From a virus, in UHGV virus genome UHGV-0111502: a stretch of DNA of 13,045 nucleotides. One strand, given 5' to 3'. The notes below the pieces were generated by a model. The model did not search any database, was not told the DNA's origin, and saw only the letters and a program-made list of their open reading frames with translations. Both the position numbers and the translations under genes were made by a program. Of the stretch, positions 764-13,045 are shown piece by piece (the first letter of the stretch is position 1; the number at the start of each line of letters is the position of its first letter).

Positions 764-1045
764 TCACATCCAGCCACGAAGTTGATGCTCAACAACAACC
801 GCGTATTTATCGAATATTGACGATTTTTTTGCATCATTAATGATGCGCACGTTTACAAAATATCCGTCTTCCTTAACACATACCGGTTCGCCATCTTCAG
901 TCAGTTCTCCGGTTTCTTTGTACACGTTACCTATCACGTCAATAAGAATATCATCCTGCATCGACTCGTCATCATAATAGCCAATACTCTCCATAAAGGC
1001 CGAAAAGTCGGCCCTGTCTGCAAATTTGAGTGTTAAATCTTTCAT
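764..1045 (-). CDS. Hypothetical small acidic protein (93 aa) within the tail-fibre cluster
   Basis: ATG at 1045-1043 overlaps the TGA stop of the upstream gene (ATGA) and is preceded by GGGGGAGAG Shine-Dalgarno; the stop at 764 lies within the ribosome-binding region of the next gene. No family recognised. Confidence 0.45.
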   Translation of the reverse strand: MKDLTLKFADRADFSAFMESIGYYDDESMQDDILIDVIGNVYKETGELTEDGEPVCVKEDGYFVNVRIINDAKKSSIFDKYAVVVEHQLRGWM

Positions 1046-2228
1046 TTAATACTCTCCCCCATTTGCGCATCAGTTAATTCTTTATGCCAGATACGCAGAT
1101 TACGGATATGACCAAAAAGATGATACTCCCCATTAGTGCCCTGCCCTCCAATTCGCAATACTGCCCGTGGAACAATTGAAGTCCATGTTGTTTTTGCCGC
1201 AACAGATAATTCACCATTACATACGGCCTGAACATCTCCATCAGCGCCACAACGGAAGCCTGAAATGATTTTCCTCTGGGTTGTTGCCACATATTTATTA
1301 CACCCTCCCATAGAAATAAAAGGAGAACCGGCATCAGAGAAATTATTACCACGGAATCCATGCGTGAACAGACCATTTTCCTGATAATCTTTAACATTAA
1401 AGATTAATGGTGATTTGCTGGGAGGGATATCCCAGTTTTTATTAACTTCAACAAGAGCACTGAATGGTAATCGGTGAATATTGTTTCTTACAGGTATTGT
1501 CACCATGTCGCTGGAGCGAGTGCCAGGAGCCCCTTCAGTAATGATAAATGACGTCCTGTACGACCCAATCTCCGCCTGAGGCATCGCAATATCTAACGTA
1601 GAGCCATTGGGGATAATACTGATTCCAGGCATCGCCAGGATTTCAAATCTTGAGCTGATTATCATTTCCGCATCTGCAAAAAGAGTGGCGGTAAACAACC
1701 ACCATTCACCGACTCTTTCTGCCGTCACCGTCACATTATTTCCATGAACAACATTTCCCGTAACAGGATCCAGAGCTGCATCTGAATGAAAAACAAACGC
1801 ACCATTATCAGACATTTTTCCGAACCTTGCACGACACCGGGAATTATCACTTTTCGTCAGACACGATATCGTCGTATAAGAACCTGCCGGGCAGGTGTAA
1901 GCATCATTCGTGTTTACAGCAATTGCCTGATATCCTTGTGCTGTCGGATTTTCATTAATAACAGTTATCCTTCCATAGTTAAACCCCTTATCACTGTCGA
2001 ACGACTCAACAGACACACTACCCGTGTTATTCCATGCTTCTGGTGTATTTGAATTTCTGAAATAGTTTGTTCTCTGTCCTTCAATCAGCAAACCTTCTCG
2101 TTCAAATCGCGGTTCGTCAACTTCAGCAACGGTTAATACACCTGATTTATTAATGTATGTTGCACCTGATGCGCGTTTGAAGCTAACAACCTTATCGGAT
2201 GGCATTTTAATAACATCATCACCTACGG

Positions 2229-5017
<2,789 letters not shown>

Positions 5018-7603: not shown

Positions 7604-8062
7604 TTATTTTAAGCACTGCGTCCTGATGTACTCCTGCAGGTAGTTAACCTGCGCGGTTATCCTGTCGATTCCACTTCGGAGACGGTAATAATTGAGTTCA
7701 GCATCTGCTGTAAGTCCTGGGCTTTCTCCATCGCCCATGCCGCTGGCTCCGGTCGTTGACTTTGCACAGGTGGCGGCGACTTGCAGGCGCTTACGCCCAG
7801 CAGAAACATCAGCACGGAGACTTTCGATAGTCGCGTTAGCATCAGCAAGCTCCTTTGTGTATCTTGCGTCGAGTTCTGCTACATCACGTTGACGCTTCCG
7901 CATGTCAGCGATGGTGGCGGTCGCCTGCTTCAGCTCACTGACTTTTTTATCTCGCTGTTCTTTGTAGGCGATGGCGTTATCACGGTAATGATTGACCGCC
8001 CACGACAGGCAGACGATGATGCAGATAACCAGAGCGGAGATAATCGCGGTTACTCTGCTCAT
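7604..8062 (-). CDS. Rz: Spanin, inner-membrane subunit (Rz-like)
   Basis: [40 protein letters not shown]... has an N-terminal transmembrane helix followed by a coiled-coil periplasmic domain, very similar to lambda Rz as remembered. The ATG at 8062 overlaps the upstream stop (ATGA) and follows a GGGGGA Shine-Dalgarno; the track start at 8074 is a GTG. Confidence 0.85.
7657..7842 (-). CDS. Rz1: Spanin, outer-membrane lipoprotein subunit (Rz1-like), embedded out of frame inside Rz
   Basis: ORF lies entirely within Rz in another frame. The ATG at 7842 follows an AAGGAG Shine-Dalgarno; the product [20 protein letters not shown]... has a signal peptide with lipobox VSAC followed by a proline-rich segment ([16 protein letters not shown]), typical of Rz1. 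Confidence 0.75.
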
Positions 8063-8256
8063 TGTTTCCCCCACAAACAGACTTCACGCTCAATCTCACG
8101 GCGAGTCATCAGTCCTTTCCATTGATTACCGCCAGCGTATGTCCAGCGCCGTAGCTGATCACATGCGCCTTTAATATCACCCTGGTTTATTTTGCGAAGA
8201 AGCGTCGATGTTCTGAAATTGCCAGCACCCGTTGTTAACTTATCCATGGATTTCAT
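8059..8256 (-). pseudogene. Lysis-cassette remnant: in-frame fusion of a pinholin (S21/EssD-type) N-terminus to the C-terminal about 55 codons of a phage-21/RrrD-type lysozyme
   Basis: 65-codon [68 protein letters not shown]. Its first 6-10 residues match the dual-start N-terminus of the phage 21 pinholin (MKSMDK...) as remembered; the remainder matches the extreme C-terminus of the RrrD/R21-type endolysin. The catalytic N-terminal region and most of the holin are absent. A GAGGTGGGG Shine-Dalgarno is retained upstream of the ATG. Confidence 0.65.
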
Positions 8257-8829
8257 AACCCCACCTCGCAGACAAAGCGGGTGTAAATTGAGGGAATACT
8301 ACGAAACGTAACAGACTCGGAGTCAGTGAATAACTCAGGTATTGGGTTATCAGCTAATATCGAGACTCAAAAAATGGAAAAACCCGCTCGACGGCGGGTT
8401 TAAGCTGTGTGACGAAGTAACCACTCTTAACAGCATAACCAATTTTTTACGTACGTAAACTACTAAATGATATTTGCGAGAATGCTACCGAGTATTGAAA
8501 ACACCACTACAAATACATAAGCAAATCTCAACAAATAACCAACAAATAATTTCCAGCGTTATTTTTAGCCAATTTAAATTGAACCTTCAAATTATAGAGC
8601 ACTTATAAATAACAGCCATTAATATAAATTGGCTAATAGATTTATTTTTATTCAGCCAAGAGCCATGAATAGGATTCGATAGAAAAAAGTTCAGATAAAA
8701 ATAGAGATCTACTTCACAAATTAAACGAGAAACCAAAACTTACATCTTGAAATAATCACATTGATTAGATGAATATTTATCGCGCAGTGACATCATTTTT
8801 TAATAATAGTTCAAAAAAAAGGGCTCACG

Positions 8830-9912
8830 ATGAAAAAATTAACAGTGGCAATTTCTGCTGTAGCTGCATCAGTACTGATGGCGATGTCTGCTCAGGCAGC
8901 TGAAATTTATAATAAAGACAGTAACAAGCTGGATCTGTACGGGAAAGTTAATGCTAAGCACTACTTCTCCTCTAATGATGCAGATGATGGTGATACTACT
9001 TATGCCCGTCTTGGCTTCAAAGGTGAAACCCAAATCAACGATCAACTGACTGGTTTCGGTCAGTGGGAATATGAATTCAAAGGCAACCGCGCTGAATCTC
9101 AAGGTTCTTCCAAAGACAAAACCCGTCTTGCATTTGCAGGCCTGAAATTTGGTGATTACGGCTCAATCGATTACGGCCGTAACTACGGTGTAGCATACGA
9201 CATCGGTGCGTGGACTGACGTCCTGCCAGAATTCGGTGGTGATACCTGGACCCAAACAGATGTGTTCATGACTGGTCGCACTACTGGTGTTGCAACTTAT
9301 CGTAACAACGACTTCTTTGGTCTGGTCGATGGCCTGAACTTTGCTGCTCAGTATCAGGGTAAAAATGACCGCACTGACGTAACTGAAGCCAATGGTGATG
9401 GTTTCGGTTTCTCCACTACTTATGAGTATGAAGGATTCGGCGTGGGTGCAACCTATGCTAAATCAGATCGCACTGACGGTCAGGTCGCCTATGGTAAGAG
9501 CAAATTCAATGCCTCCGGCAAAAATGCGGAAGTATGGGCTGCAGGCCTGAAATATGATGCGAACAATATCTATCTGGCTACCACATATTCTGAAACTCAG
9601 AATATGACCGTTTTTGGTAATAACCATATTGCAAACAAAGCACAAAACTTTGAAGCAGTAGCACAATATCAGTTTGACTTCGGTCTGCGCCCATCTGTTG
9701 CTTACCTTCAGTCAAAAGGTAAAGACCTTGGTGTTCATGGTGACCGAGACTTAGTCAAGTATGTCGATGTCGGTGCTACTTACTACTTTAATAAAAACAT
9801 GTCCACTTTTGTTGATTACAAAATCAACTTAATTGACGATAGTAAGTTTACCAAAACAGCTGGTATTGATACTGATGATATCGTTGCTGTAGGTCTGGTT
9901 TACCAGTTCTAA
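8830..9912 (+). CDS. nmpC: Phage-encoded outer-membrane general porin (NmpC/Lc/OmpC-OmpF family), full length with signal peptide
   Basis: 360-aa [26 protein letters not shown]|[25 protein letters not shown]... ending in the porin C-terminal signature ...[12 protein letters not shown] at 8830, TAA at 9910-9912; oriented opposite to Q and the late genes, as nmpC/lc are in DLP12/PA-2-type phages. Confidence 0.9.
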
Positions 9913-9920
9913 TCTGATTA

Positions 9921-9959
9921 CGAAAAAGATATGTTGCGGGAGGCGTTGCCTCCCCAACA
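9921..9959 (-). terminator. Candidate intrinsic terminator on the minus strand (tR'-like), just downstream of the putative late promoter and just before the antisense porin
   Basis: Plus-strand 9932-9959 tgttgcgggaggcgttgcctccccaaca forms a 12-bp stem with one bulge and a 3-nt loop; on the minus strand the hairpin is followed directly by UAUCUUUUUCGU (reverse complement of 9920-9931). Confidence 0.45.
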
Positions 9960-10025
9960 TATAAGTGGCTCCCTCAAGCCACTTCCTTTAGAAGCACAAC
10001 CTTGCATCTAACTATATAAACCTTC

Positions 10026-10062
10026 TGTTATATATTACCCTTTATTTTTGGGGGCGTCTCAA
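10026..10062 (-). promoter_or_regulatory. Candidate Q-dependent late promoter (PR'-like)
   Basis: On the minus strand: TTGAGA (complement of 10057-10062), an 18-nt spacer, then TAATAT (complement of 10032-10037). It lies about 65-75 bp downstream of the Q stop, similar to the Q-to-PR' spacing in lambda; the predicted short transcript would end at the 9921-9959 terminator. Motif-based inference only. Confidence 0.4.
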
Positions 10063-10085
10063 CGCCCCATTTTTAATAATTTTTA
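10043..10085 (+). terminator. Candidate intrinsic terminator on the plus strand (end of the porin transcript / 3' UTR)
   Basis: GC stem GGGGCGT(10051-10057)/ACGCCCC(10062-10068) with loop CTCA, followed on the plus strand by AUUUUUAAUAAUUUUU. On the minus strand it is followed by an A-run, so it is unidirectional. Confidence 0.45.
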
Positions 10086-10101
10086 GTAAACAATTGGCAT
10101 A

Positions 10102-10485
10102 TTAATTAGAGTTATTAACAACGATATCCATCTCTAACCGGATATCTAATGCCATTAACATCCCTTCAATTATGCCCTCAGCCTTTTGTAACCTTTTCCC
10201 GATATAACCATCAGAGCAGCAATGCTTACCTGCCAGTGACATGAATGTCATACCGACTATATAATAATCTACTAATAAATCGTGCAAATCGCTGTTGTTC
10301 TTTTTCAGACGGGCCATGCACCCGCAAATGATCATCGCGTCATCGTCACAACATTGCGGGCGAGATTTTACTTTTGAAGGAATTAATCCCTTAAAACCGG
10401 CAGCAATGGACGACCAGGTCACATCCTCATGATTATTTGCCGCCCATGCGCCCCAGCGTTCAAGAACCATCTGAATATCACGCAT
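10102..10485 (-). CDS. quuD: Late-gene antiterminator Q (phage 82/QuuD type, 127 aa)
   Basis: [62 protein letters not shown]... matches the 82-type Q/QuuD sequence as remembered, including the Cys-rich zinc-binding region. The true ATG at 10485-10483 overlaps the upstream stop (TAATG); the track start at 10494 is a GTG. Confidence 0.8.
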
Positions 10486-11342
10486 TATTCGCACTCACCA
10501 ACCAGATTGAGAATGACCGCTGCACCGTCGTCTTCCATGCATTCACCCTTACCACTTGCCAGAAACCAGCGGCACACCTCCACGGCTTCAGCGCGTGTCA
10601 CCGGTTTGATGGTTGCCAGCAATTTTTCAAGGTAGCGCTCGCGGTCATATACCGATTCGTGATGCTCAGAGTAACCAAACTCATCGCCCTGTTCTTTAGT
10701 TGCAGTGTGGCGAACACTGTAGAGCCAGTCCCAGTAAACGAACTCGCGAACAACATCAGACAGCGTATAAGGCTCAGGCAGCACATCGCGATATCCATCA
10801 ACAAATGCCCGACGCTGTTCATCAATTTCGTTCATGCGGCTGCCGCCAATGCTTCCGGCTTTTTTCTCTGCCGCAGTCCAGCCCCAGAGATGATCGTTGA
10901 TAAATTTCTGGGAAGACCTGATGACCCGCTCTGCTTCCACATCTTCGAGCGCTGCTTCATAGCTACCAAACGTAGCCCTGACTGATGCCGCTTTTTTGAT
11001 GTTCTCCCGGGCGTTCCTGATAACCTGCGCAGGGTTATCCATGCCGATGATGCCGAACGCAACTTGGAAAGGTTCGTAACCATTCGCCAGCAGATAACGC
11101 GAATAGCGTTCCTGAGCCTCTTTTGGGGAAATTTTAATTTTCACCAGCGCAGCCTCAGCAGCATCCAGATGTGCGGGTTCGTTCAGACGGATAACCTCCA
11201 GCACCCAAAGATAAGCATCAGTCTGCTTATGCCCGGTGATTCTCCGTTGCTCTGGCAGGGGCTTGATGTTTGCGAGGGCGGAGCTGTACGCTGCCGTCGG
11301 GATGGTGAATAGTGCTTTATGTTCGTTATTATCAGTACGCAT
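10485..11342 (-). CDS. Uncharacterised 285-aa protein in the nin-region position between the primase-like gene and Q
   Basis: Long ORF with typical coding composition. Its ATG at 11342-11340 overlaps the stop of the Toprim gene (TAATG) and its stop overlaps the Q ATG (TAATG), so it is translationally coupled on both sides. No family recognised by inspection. Confidence 0.6.
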
Positions 11343-12310
11343 TACGCAACCGCCTTTTTCTTATGGAAAACCAGCTCTCGAACCTGATCACCGTTCATGA
11401 GCATATTGTTGAAATCATCGTGATCCGGCCAGTACACGCTCACGCGCTGCAGGTCATTCTTTGCCATCAGATTGGCATGAGCACATTCGCAAGCCGCAGC
11501 CAGCCCGGTGGCGCTGTTCTCGTCACGGTCGGCAAAAATAATCAGGTGCAGAACACCAGCTGGTACGCGAAACTTTTTCATAAAGCCGCTGTTAATGGTT
11601 GCCCAGGTGTTCACGTTATAAATCTGGTGCGCTGACAGCGCTGTTTCGATGCCTTCGGCGATACCCAGAGTGCTGGCGACAGGAAACATGCGGATAGCTA
11701 CAGAACGAGCGTGATCCAAATAGTTATCTTCCTGCAGGGATTTGAGGCGCTTTGCACTGCTACCGATATCTGCTTTTTTATCACCATCAAGCAGAGTCTG
11801 GTGCAGATAGCACAACTCCCCTTTATCGTCCGTAGCAAGTGAATAAAGAGACTGGAACACACTCCCGTTGTGTCTCTGCCTGGCATTGAACCGGATCGCC
11901 TCAGCAGGAAGACTGAATATTCCACGAGAATTAAGATACGCTGCGCCGGATGTACCACGCAGTGCCTCCAGTTTTGAAAACTTGCTCAATACCCGTTTGC
12001 GTAAGCTGGTGGCGCTGCTGGTTACCGGGATTTTAACCCGTTGGTAATCATTACCGATCAGGCGGTCTATTTCGGTACAAATCTCGTTAAATGGCTTCGC
12101 CTGTGTCAGGGTGACAAGTTTCATACCATCGCCACTACCACATACACAGATCCACGTTCCTGCACCGTCGCGGTCGTCAATTCGGAACTTGCCACGTGCA
12201 CCGCATACCGGGCATTCACCCTTGAAGTGATTTTTTCCGGTTATCGGCGGCAGACCGAAGTGCTCTAATATTTCAGGCCAGCGGCCTTTCGCTGCATCTG
12301 CTGTTTTCAT
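11342..12310 (-). CDS. Primase-like protein: N-terminal zinc-ribbon (CxxC...CxC) plus Toprim-type domain
   Basis: 322-aa ORF. N-terminus GECPVCGARGKFRIDDRDGAGTWICVCGSG is a primase-type zinc-binding motif. C-terminal half has an acidic Toprim-like signature (LHLIIFADRDENSATGL...YWPDHDDFNNM). ATG at 12310 lies 1 nt after the helicase stop. Confidence 0.65.
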   Translation of the reverse strand: MKTADAAKGRWPEILEHFGLPPITGKNHFKGECPVCGARGKFRIDDRDGAGTWICVCGSGDGMKLVTLTQAKPFNEICTEIDRLIGNDYQRVKIPVTSSATSLRKRVLSKFSKLEALRGTSGAAYLNSRGIFSLPAEAIRFNARQRHNGSVFQSLYSLATDDKGELCYLHQTLLDGDKKADIGSSAKRLKSLQEDNYLDHARSVAIRMFPVASTLGIAEGIETALSAHQIYNVNTWATINSGFMKKFRVPAGVLHLIIFADRDENSATGLAAACECAHANLMAKNDLQRVSVYWPDHDDFNNMLMNGDQVRELVFHKKKAVA

Positions 12311-12311
12311 C

Positions 12312-13045
12312 TTACTGACTCAGATTGTTTATATTTTTCTGGAGTTGGTGCTTTGCCTGCATGATGCGCCAGGCCTCACTGCCTGCCGGTATCTCACGTC
12401 GTTCATCACGTTCCTGAGATAAATCAATCGTTGTTTGTGCGTTTTCAGTGACCTTCTGAACCCGCTGGTGGCCTTTGGCAAACCGGATCAGTTTGTGTCT
12501 GATGTAGTTATTTACCTCAGGGGTAATTTCCATCGGAAAGTTACTCAGTCCGTCAGGCCACTCACCGAACTTTTCCCGGAAAGTGTGAGCACACCATCCG
12601 TCACTGACTGGACGCCCCAGCGAAGCACGCTGGCGCTGATAAAATTTGATCTGACTCCACCAGGACTGTTTCTCTGCCTTCGTCGACTGATGCTGATTTT
12701 TACCCAGCTTATTAAGTTTGCGGCTAGTGTCAGTATCAACGTCTTCACCTCGCAGCGGCTTGTGTCCACATTTCGGGCAAACATAGACGCCTGCTGGCTT
12801 CATGTAGTGGCATTGAGGGCATTCATGTGGCAGTTTTTCGGCCCGTTCCTCAACTGCCCGGCGCGCGCTTTCCTCCATGCCGTCAGACTTACCGGGAAGC
12901 TCGTCGTACTCGATTGAATCCGGATAACCCAAACGGTGCACGGTGCCGCTGTGATCGAAGATAAGGCAGGACTCTTTACCCGGTGCGGTGCGCAGCCCAC
13001 GCCTGAGCGCCTGCAACCAGCGAATTTCGCTTTTTGTTGTCCTGG
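12312..13045 (-). CDS. Helicase (SF2-like) C-terminal portion with zinc-ribbon; gene continues beyond the window edge
   Basis: Reading frame is open to the window end. ...EIRWLQALRRGLRTAPGKESCLIFDH resembles helicase motif VI (Q-x-x-G-R-x-x-R), followed by the Cys pairs CPQCHYMKPAGVYVCPKCGH. The track start at 13016 is a TTG inside the frame, not a real start. Confidence 0.65.
   Translation of the reverse strand, partial: RTTKSEIRWLQALRRGLRTAPGKESCLIFDHSGTVHRLGYPDSIEYDELPGKSDGMEESARRAVEERAEKLPHECPQCHYMKPAGVYVCPKCGHKPLRGEDVDTDTSRKLNKLGKNQHQSTKAEKQSWWSQIKFYQRQRASLGRPVSDGWCAHTFREKFGEWPDGLSNFPMEITPEVNNYIRHKLIRFAKGHQRVQKVTENAQTTIDLSQERDERREIPAGSEAWRIMQAKHQLQKNINNLSQ

Follow-up and report, generated by a model that had tools for sequence, protein, structure and literature searches.

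We analysed a gene in UHGV virus genome UHGV-0111502, a stretch of 13,045 nucleotides that is called the window throughout this paper. The gene lies on the minus strand (10485..11342) between a primase gene and the gene for a Q antiterminator, and its 285-residue product is here named X. The gene is real and conserved, it is linked to a helicase-primase pair to which it is dispensable, and the core of its product is acidic and has an orphan fold, to which many relatives add modular N-terminal heads. The reading that we favour, tentatively, is that X is a dispensable and probably translationally coupled accessory of the early/replication operon that would bind a protein partner, with the core serving as a DNA-tethered effector in the relatives and the form without a head serving as a free adaptor or modulator.

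The gene for X and its family

An original prediction, made from the letters of the window alone, had placed a 285-residue open reading frame (ORF) between the primase gene and Q. An ATG-initiated ORF is indeed found there, on the minus strand, which the prediction had left unsaid, and the TAATG overlaps that it reported are present at both ends (Table 1). An in-frame stop codon lies seven codons upstream of the ATG, so that the start cannot be extended and no upstream helix-turn-helix (HTH) can be hidden there. X is thus a real gene and not a chance reading frame, as is evident from its many clusters of homologues, the low ratio of nonsynonymous to synonymous substitution rates (dN/dS), a confident AF2 model and the non-extendable start. 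Translation of X is probably coupled to that of the primase, since the start codon of X overlaps the primase stop codon. An E. coli locus in RefSeq that is 99.5% identical has the same one-nucleotide overlaps (11001-11969 / 11969-12826 / 12826-13209), and its downstream gene is labelled quuD. A promoter and terminator scan within primase-X-Q gave no signal above chance, and Rfam and transfer RNA scans returned nothing relevant.

X matches phrog_6204 over its full length (residues 1-285 on 1-285 of 286, E 2.4e-182) and phrog_2887 and phrog_19083 over residues 170-285; all of its PHROG matches are families of unknown function. Clustering of its relatives at 90% identity gives 390 protein clusters, and at 50% identity 136. 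The protein is 100% identical to one from Escherichia phage vB_EcoS-611R1, and its identity is 92% to the phi467 homologue, 82.5% to STM0902 of Salmonella phage Fels-1 and 77.5% to the homologue in Cronobacter phage ENT39118. X is under purifying selection, with dN/dS values of 0.09-0.12 against four homologues of 79-93% identity. In the alignment, all of the family motifs are present in X (N..H..LF.IP; LP.Q..TG...D..LW; RY; FG; P.TL.D...E..YW..L...R; P....EA; IL.NL), and the near-invariant residues of the family are mostly P, G, W, F and L. One matching protein of 1324 residues (P0184) was excluded from all analyses, as its match, in seven stretches, looks spurious or repetitive; it also has several Pfam matches to unrelated families, none of them with an individually significant stretch.

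By these sequence relationships X belongs to the catalogued and unstudied Fels-1 STM0902 / phrog_6204 family, and is therefore not unique. RefSeq names family members either "hypothetical protein" or "helix-turn-helix domain-containing protein". A literature search on STM0902 yielded a microarray list only, and searches with the WP accession and the PHROG identifiers yielded nothing.

Linkage to the helicase-primase module and dispensability

In every annotated case that we opened, the order was helicase-primase-X with a one-nucleotide overlap. X directly follows the Toprim primase of an SF2 helicase-primase pair in the window, in Fels-1, in 611R1 and in the E. coli loci. Of 5426 complete E. 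coli genomes, 97 (1.8%) have X and 103 have the X-associated primase. A search of plasmids for X found prophage-like matches only. On the other side of X, at least four Q arrangements occur: QuuD (127 residues), a 271-residue Q, a 141-residue Q after an 80-nucleotide gap, and a DnaB-fragment scar followed by an 85-residue gene product and a 116-residue Q. The comparison of the window with phage vB_EcoS-611R1, which has a different Q, places the boundary exactly, with about 100% identity through X and about 25% right after the GAATAATG joint. Homology ends at the joint of the X stop and the Q start. This puts X at the end of the helicase-primase module, with one Q module replaced by another exactly at the X stop codon. 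X thus goes with the helicase-primase genes and not with Q: across the carriers surveyed, the helicase-primase pair is constant beside X and the type of Q varies.

The position of X can also be filled in other ways, or left empty. The primase gene leads straight to Q in phage Fostie (primase 81% identical), in Yersinia phage YP3 (84%) and in the E. coli D53-1 prophage. Klebsiella phages have in the slot a short form of 158 residues, the main part of which is the C-terminal subdomain. Of the region corresponding to X residues 1-165 it retains only the N-terminal motif ("N..H..FFTI"), most of the rest being absent. Stx2a phages such as TL-2011c have a homologous primase followed by NinB-NinG-NinH-Q. 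Among phage records, primase homologues were found in 129 and X in 12. X is a dispensable occupant of the nin slot, because phages with related helicase-primase pairs have an empty slot, the short form or NinB-NinG-NinH there; on these genomic comparisons, X is dispensable to its helicase-primase module. The earlier proposal that X stands in for the lambda nin region agrees with this pattern of occupancy.

These X-less genomes bear directly on whether X might be an essential replication component of the module, such as an origin binder or a helicase loader. The tight coupling of X to the primase would fit such a role, as would the lack of a recognisable O/P-type initiator or loader in the module. 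However, X is missing altogether from isolated phages, and from a prophage, whose helicase-primase pairs are closely related, the Klebsiella phages retain only the short form, X itself is acidic and has no head, and in one prophage (L009) X coexists with a complete rep_O and DnaB set. An essential role is largely refuted by the natural X-less phages, and we regard this explanation as very improbable.

The neighbourhood of X also holds traces of exchange. In E. coli 2014C-3599, a fragment of a replicative DnaB-type helicase gene lies between X and a different Q (L062:5900-6091); it looks like a recombination scar left by a swap with another lambdoid replication module at the end of X. The cargo beside the same replication/Q backbone varies between strains: one locus has Hok/Gef and a type I HsdM/HsdS pair after Q (L061:6568-10686), and TL-2011c has a restriction-methylase pair to the left of the repressor (L066:1-1390). 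The E. coli AF14 prophage, which has the same X, encodes in its early-left operon (L003:2550-5589) a 189-residue "beta clamp domain-containing protein", an ORF6N protein, an SPFH protein and a ParE-like toxin. A phage-encoded clamp-like protein of this kind is unusual.

Predicted structure and searches for a known identity

The AF2 model of X, built from a 67-sequence alignment (pLDDT 91.1, pTM 0.84), has an extended N-terminal segment (residues 1-37) followed by about 14 helices and no strands. The whole protein has a net charge of -9, with -11 coming from the C-terminal subdomain. A fold search of the model against PDB and BFVD libraries found no significant neighbour. The weak, non-significant resemblances were all to alpha-alpha scaffolds (helical-repeat mitoribosomal/OPR proteins, 14-3-3, TPR and IFIT), with scores at the level expected between unrelated helical proteins, which are not evidence of homology; X also has neither the repeat periodicity of such proteins nor any sequence relationship to them that we could find. 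As modelled, X would be a soluble, acidic, all-alpha protein of two subdomains with a fold that matches no PDB or BFVD structure. A candidate beta-clamp-binding motif in the N-terminal "(H/L)RxLFxLP" was set aside, as the canonical Q residue is missing. This segment is probably ordered and not a free linear motif, given its pLDDT of 81-88 in the model.

Sequence searches also failed to connect X with a known function. Pfam gave only a sub-threshold match to UPF0020 and NCBIfam gave nothing; comparison with the PADLOC-DB defence profiles gave 0 families at E up to 0.1, and comparison with PDB chains, by single sequence and by profile, gave no meaningful match. The solved anti-defence proteins (Ocr, ArdA, Gad1, Tad, Acb and others) had no sequence match to X in PDB and no fold match in PDB or BFVD, and X showed neither sequence nor fold similarity to replication initiators or helicase loaders (lambda O/P, DnaC-like). 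Six distant homologues of X matched only the same unknown-function PHROGs, save for a weak match of the N-terminal head of one of them (P0133) to phrog_2308, which is also of unknown function.

Three specific identities were considered and rejected. The UPF0020 match (16.1 bits against a cut-off of 22.3, over 57 residues) might have indicated an RMKL-like S-adenosylmethionine-dependent methyltransferase, but its score is under the cut-off and the model is all-alpha without strands, and is not a Rossmann fold. An HTH DNA-binding protein is indicated by some database labels, but X has no HTH match in Pfam, and the HTH of its relatives is in an N-terminal extension of about 45 residues that is missing here; P0133, which has such a head, aligns to X from P0133 residue 44. 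The RefSeq "helix-turn-helix" label is thus misleading for X and for the whole Fels-1 group, since the N-terminal head is missing. Finally, an antirepressor C-domain of the Bro/KilA/Ant type was rejected on the basis of hhalign comparisons of the X family with neighbouring Bro-N, ORF6N and Rha proteins, which gave probabilities below 1%.

The original prediction's statement that X has no recognisable catalytic or DNA-binding motif holds: no Pfam, NCBIfam or PADLOC family model matches X, there is no HTH and the core is acidic. It had also proposed that a match to NinB, NinG or Roi would make X ordinary; profile hidden Markov model searches of Pfam, PHROG and NCBIfam gave no match to these or to NinH, so X is not of an ordinary nin family. 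The structure prediction and structural search that it had recommended led to the confident all-alpha model and the lack of significant PDB or BFVD neighbours described above.

These results are relevant to the possibility that X takes over the work of NinB/NinG in the slot as an accessory of recombination or repair. NinB-NinG-NinH do occupy the same slot in Stx2a phages with a homologous primase, a single-stranded DNA-binding protein (SSB) gene precedes X in one locus (L011), and RusA comes soon after X in L009. This case is positional only, however, and in sequence and fold X resembles neither Orf/NinB, Rap/NinG and RusA nor any nuclease, while its acidic core is devoid of nucleic-acid-binding features. 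We consider a recombination role improbable.

N-terminal heads and replicase neighbourhoods in the wider family

The core motifs are common to the 50%-identity representatives and to 44 loci from Pseudomonas, Azotobacter and many Betaproteobacteria. An extra N-terminal head, directly ahead of the N..H..LF.LP motif, is present in about half of these relatives. The commonest is an HTH of about 45 residues that resembles sigma-70 region 4 (Sigma70_r4_2/HTH_23 in 13 of 67 aligned members). One distant member (P0164) has a Bro-N head, and two (P0217 and P0221) have a ParB/Srx-like head, assigned by eye from a DG.HR..A.AAG box and not confirmed by Pfam. In several relatives the head is a basic AERQRRYR segment. 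The heads have charges of +4 to +9, and the core has a median isoelectric point of 5.3 and a net charge of -9. The acidity of the core, the basic heads and the near-invariant P, G, W, F and L residues suggest that the core is non-catalytic and does not itself bind DNA, and that swappable heads bring it there. The X of the window and the entire Fels-1 group are headless.

Head-bearing relatives are usually encoded a short way downstream of a replicase and a probable origin. A replicase gene occurs within five genes of a head-bearing X in 28 of 32 loci (with three HTH calls corrected by hand), and the replicases are of many types: Toprim_3 with DUF927; DnaB; Zn-ribbon/DUF927; PriCT_2 with AAA_25; DUF3987; rep_O with DnaB_C; and Zn_Ribbon_Prim/Toprim_3/DUF927 with SSB. 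A further homologue (L005), with a basic N-terminal segment and no HTH, is preceded by a D5_N/DUF5906 replicase. All-against-all clustering of the neighbours in 48 loci found no cluster common across contexts except the replicases, and no conserved small partner gene.

In integrative elements of Pseudomonas and Azotobacter with a head-bearing X, arrays of GGGGAAC in both orientations occur in a gap of about 300 base pairs after the DUF927 gene (L016:5610-5860, L023:5618-5862 and L060:7556-7846). Judging from these repeats, the gap probably serves as an iteron-type origin. In these elements X is the second gene past the iteron gap, and tail genes or a gene for a DUF5681 protein come next, making X the last early gene before the structural genes. 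In four Pseudomonas loci (L016:7747-8424, L022:8198-12171, L031:9007-12834 and L025:7863-11228), genes for lambda gpI-like tail assembly and tape-measure proteins follow directly after replicase-X, with no head genes between. This odd order suggests islands inserted in the tail clusters of prophages or tailocins, or very compact mosaic elements.

The same arrangements might be explained if X were a cofactor of the switch from early to late transcription, with head-bearing relatives acting as late-gene activators and the headless form modulating RNA polymerase or Q-dependent late transcription. Late activators are classically encoded just ahead of the late genes. X is the last early gene before Q in the window and in L011, and the last before tail or terminase-like genes in the Pseudomonas elements; in L009, a prophage without Q, a few small genes, Sequestin and RusA among them, separate it from the structural genes that follow. 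The resemblance of the commonest head to sigma-70 region 4 and the acidity of the core, which would fit an activation domain, are also consistent with this role. It is harder to reconcile with a headless X in the window, with the lack of co-variation between X and the type of Q (at least four Q arrangements, and homology that ends at the X/Q joint), with phages that have the same module and Q without X, and with several elements in which the downstream genes overlap X and leave no intergenic promoter region. On balance, a role in late transcription seems to us unlikely.

Proposed role of X

We prefer the explanation that X, the last gene of the helicase-primase module, serves the phage early-right operon as a dispensable accessory and would act by binding protein, not as an enzyme or DNA binder. 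Protein binding is the most likely mode of action since X has neither a catalytic signature nor a DNA-binding head. In the head-bearing relatives, the core may be an effector or recruitment module at or near the DNA of the replicating element, and the headless Fels-1-type form could then be a free adaptor or modulator of the same partner as the tethered core. The partner would more likely be a conserved host factor than a phage replicase, because the core adjoins many unrelated replicase types.

Several points weigh against this explanation. Eleven headless non-enteric homologues lie at operon ends near integrases, with Bro-N/ORF6N neighbours and no replicase nearby. The count of 28 in 32 loci is inflated by kinship, since about 18 of the Pseudomonas loci represent one island family, and the genes of the fetched loci were called with a simple, crude ORF caller. 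Any replication role of X could be only modulatory, because the replication module of the natural X-less phages works. Synteny cannot separate a replication role from one in late transcription, because the slot after the replication genes also precedes the late genes. Protein binding, the link to replication and the partner are all things that we infer.

A more specific version of the proposal would make the core a new effector fold that is spread through the phages, satellite-like islands and prophages of Gamma- and Betaproteobacteria. The heads would place the core next to the replicase and origin to capture a conserved host factor, and the headless lambdoid form would be a decoy or competitor, either for the host factor or for the head-bearing versions of rival elements. 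We consider this version distinctly unlikely as a whole. A blastn search of complete E. coli genomes found no head-bearing enteric relative of the P0133 type, which weakens a decoy model operating within the species.

A different kind of partner is envisaged if X is a counter-defence or host-takeover factor, an optional early product that would neutralise, by binding it, a protein of host immunity or housekeeping. Early and nin regions of lambda contain many accessory genes of this kind. X is dispensable and patchily distributed, occupies a slot of swappable accessory genes, is rare in E. coli and, as a gene of the lytic operon, would be expressed early; the protein is acidic and non-enzymatic and has an orphan fold, and its headless relatives are found in accessory early-left regions near integrases. 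Against these features, X was never seen detached from the helicase-primase pair in E. coli, unlike freely shuffling morons, and it is unlike any solved anti-defence protein. That about half of its relatives have DNA-binding heads and lie beside replicases would also be unusual for known anti-defence proteins. A counter-defence role is, in our estimate, somewhat unlikely, and a defence or anti-defence role of X is not favoured over other accessory roles by present evidence.

Neighbouring genes and condition of the prophage

The features of the window that concern X are collected in Table 1. The primase upstream of X resembles the N-terminal half of P4 alpha (P4-alpha-like primase PHROG). The part of the helicase that is contained in the window is 99.6% identical to residues 319-552 of the 552-residue helicase of the AF14 prophage (L003). 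A mechanical ORF call starts the Q frame at an in-frame GTG at 10494.

Table 1. Position of X, its subdomains, its junctions and its neighbours in the window
Feature	Position	Strand	Basis and remarks
X coding sequence	10485..11342	-	285 residues, ATG start, stop included; Fels-1 STM0902 / phrog_6204 family; predicted all-alpha
X residues 1-165: N-terminal strap (N5..H..LF.IP15, LP30.Q..TG37..D42..LW46) and first helical subdomain	10848..11342	-	alignment; AF2 secondary structure
X residues 166-285: acidic C-terminal helical subdomain, net charge -11	10488..10847	-	phrog_2887/phrog_19083 matches, residues 170-285; tblastn matches, residues 172-285
TAATG overlap of primase stop and X start	11340..11344	-	sequence; same overlap annotated in RefSeq loci
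TAATG overlap of X stop and Q ATG	10483..10487	-	sequence
GGTGAG, Shine-Dalgarno-like element	10499..10494	-	inside final X codons
Primase, 322 residues	11342..12310	-	Zn_Ribbon_Prim + DUF7146 + Toprim_3 (Pfam); PHROG phrog_510
Superfamily 2 (SF2) DEAD/DEAH helicase, C-terminal part, zinc ribbon	12312..13016	-	phrog_16; gene continues beyond window end
Q antiterminator, QuuD type, 127 residues from ATG	10102..10485	-	Phage_antitermQ E 1.2e-53; RefSeq quuD

Judged from its gene content, the window prophage is a defective, cryptic remnant in which X is intact. The lysozyme ORF (8059..8256, minus strand) is a C-terminal fragment only (Pfam positions 78-125 of 125), and no holin lies between Q and Rz (7604..10485). 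The lambda-type portal gene (2229..2918, minus strand) is truncated (positions 2-171 of 354) and abuts an ORF for a tail-fibre-like protein of 407 residues (1042..2918 for the two). Directly after Q, on the opposite strand, is a complete gene for a porin of the OmpC/NmpC/Lc type (8830..9912, plus strand; Porin_1 E 1.9e-151), with a strong hairpin terminator near it at 10051..10068. This resembles the quuD-nmpC arrangement of the cryptic prophage DLP12.

Comparison with known systems

Should the core turn out to recruit or sequester a conserved host protein, it would be a new and widespread component with which mobile elements that have very different replicases deal with their hosts. A function would then be given to a family whose members in hundreds of enterobacterial prophages, Fels-1 included, now go under the name "hypothetical" or, which is misleading, "HTH domain-containing". 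The natural series behind homologous primases (full-length X, the 158-residue form, the empty slot and NinB/G/H) is a ready comparison set for genetics.

Iyer, Koonin and Aravind are said to have described, in 2002, modular phage regulators of the "antirepressor type" with interchangeable DNA-binding heads (Bro-N, KilA-N, ORF6N and Rha). The X family shares with these a variable N-terminal head on a conserved C-terminal module, and Bro-N and ORF6N genes are frequent neighbours. The X core, however, is unrelated to the C-terminal parts of the neighbouring regulators, and the X of the window is headless.

With the lambda nin genes (NinB/Orf, NinG/Rap, NinH and Roi), X shares the slot between the last replication gene and Q, and both are dispensable. 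X differs from them in having no sequence or fold similarity to any of them, in being a single gene that overlaps both of its neighbours, and in staying with one replication module in E. coli without shuffling. Among the accessory genes of mosaic slots, X is ordinary in kind and unstudied, and is made distinct by its unusually clean anatomy and by a fold unmatched in PDB and BFVD. Its closest parallel is its own family, Fels-1 STM0902 / phrog_6204, whose members are full-length homologues in the same helicase-primase-X-Q order and from which it does not differ in kind.

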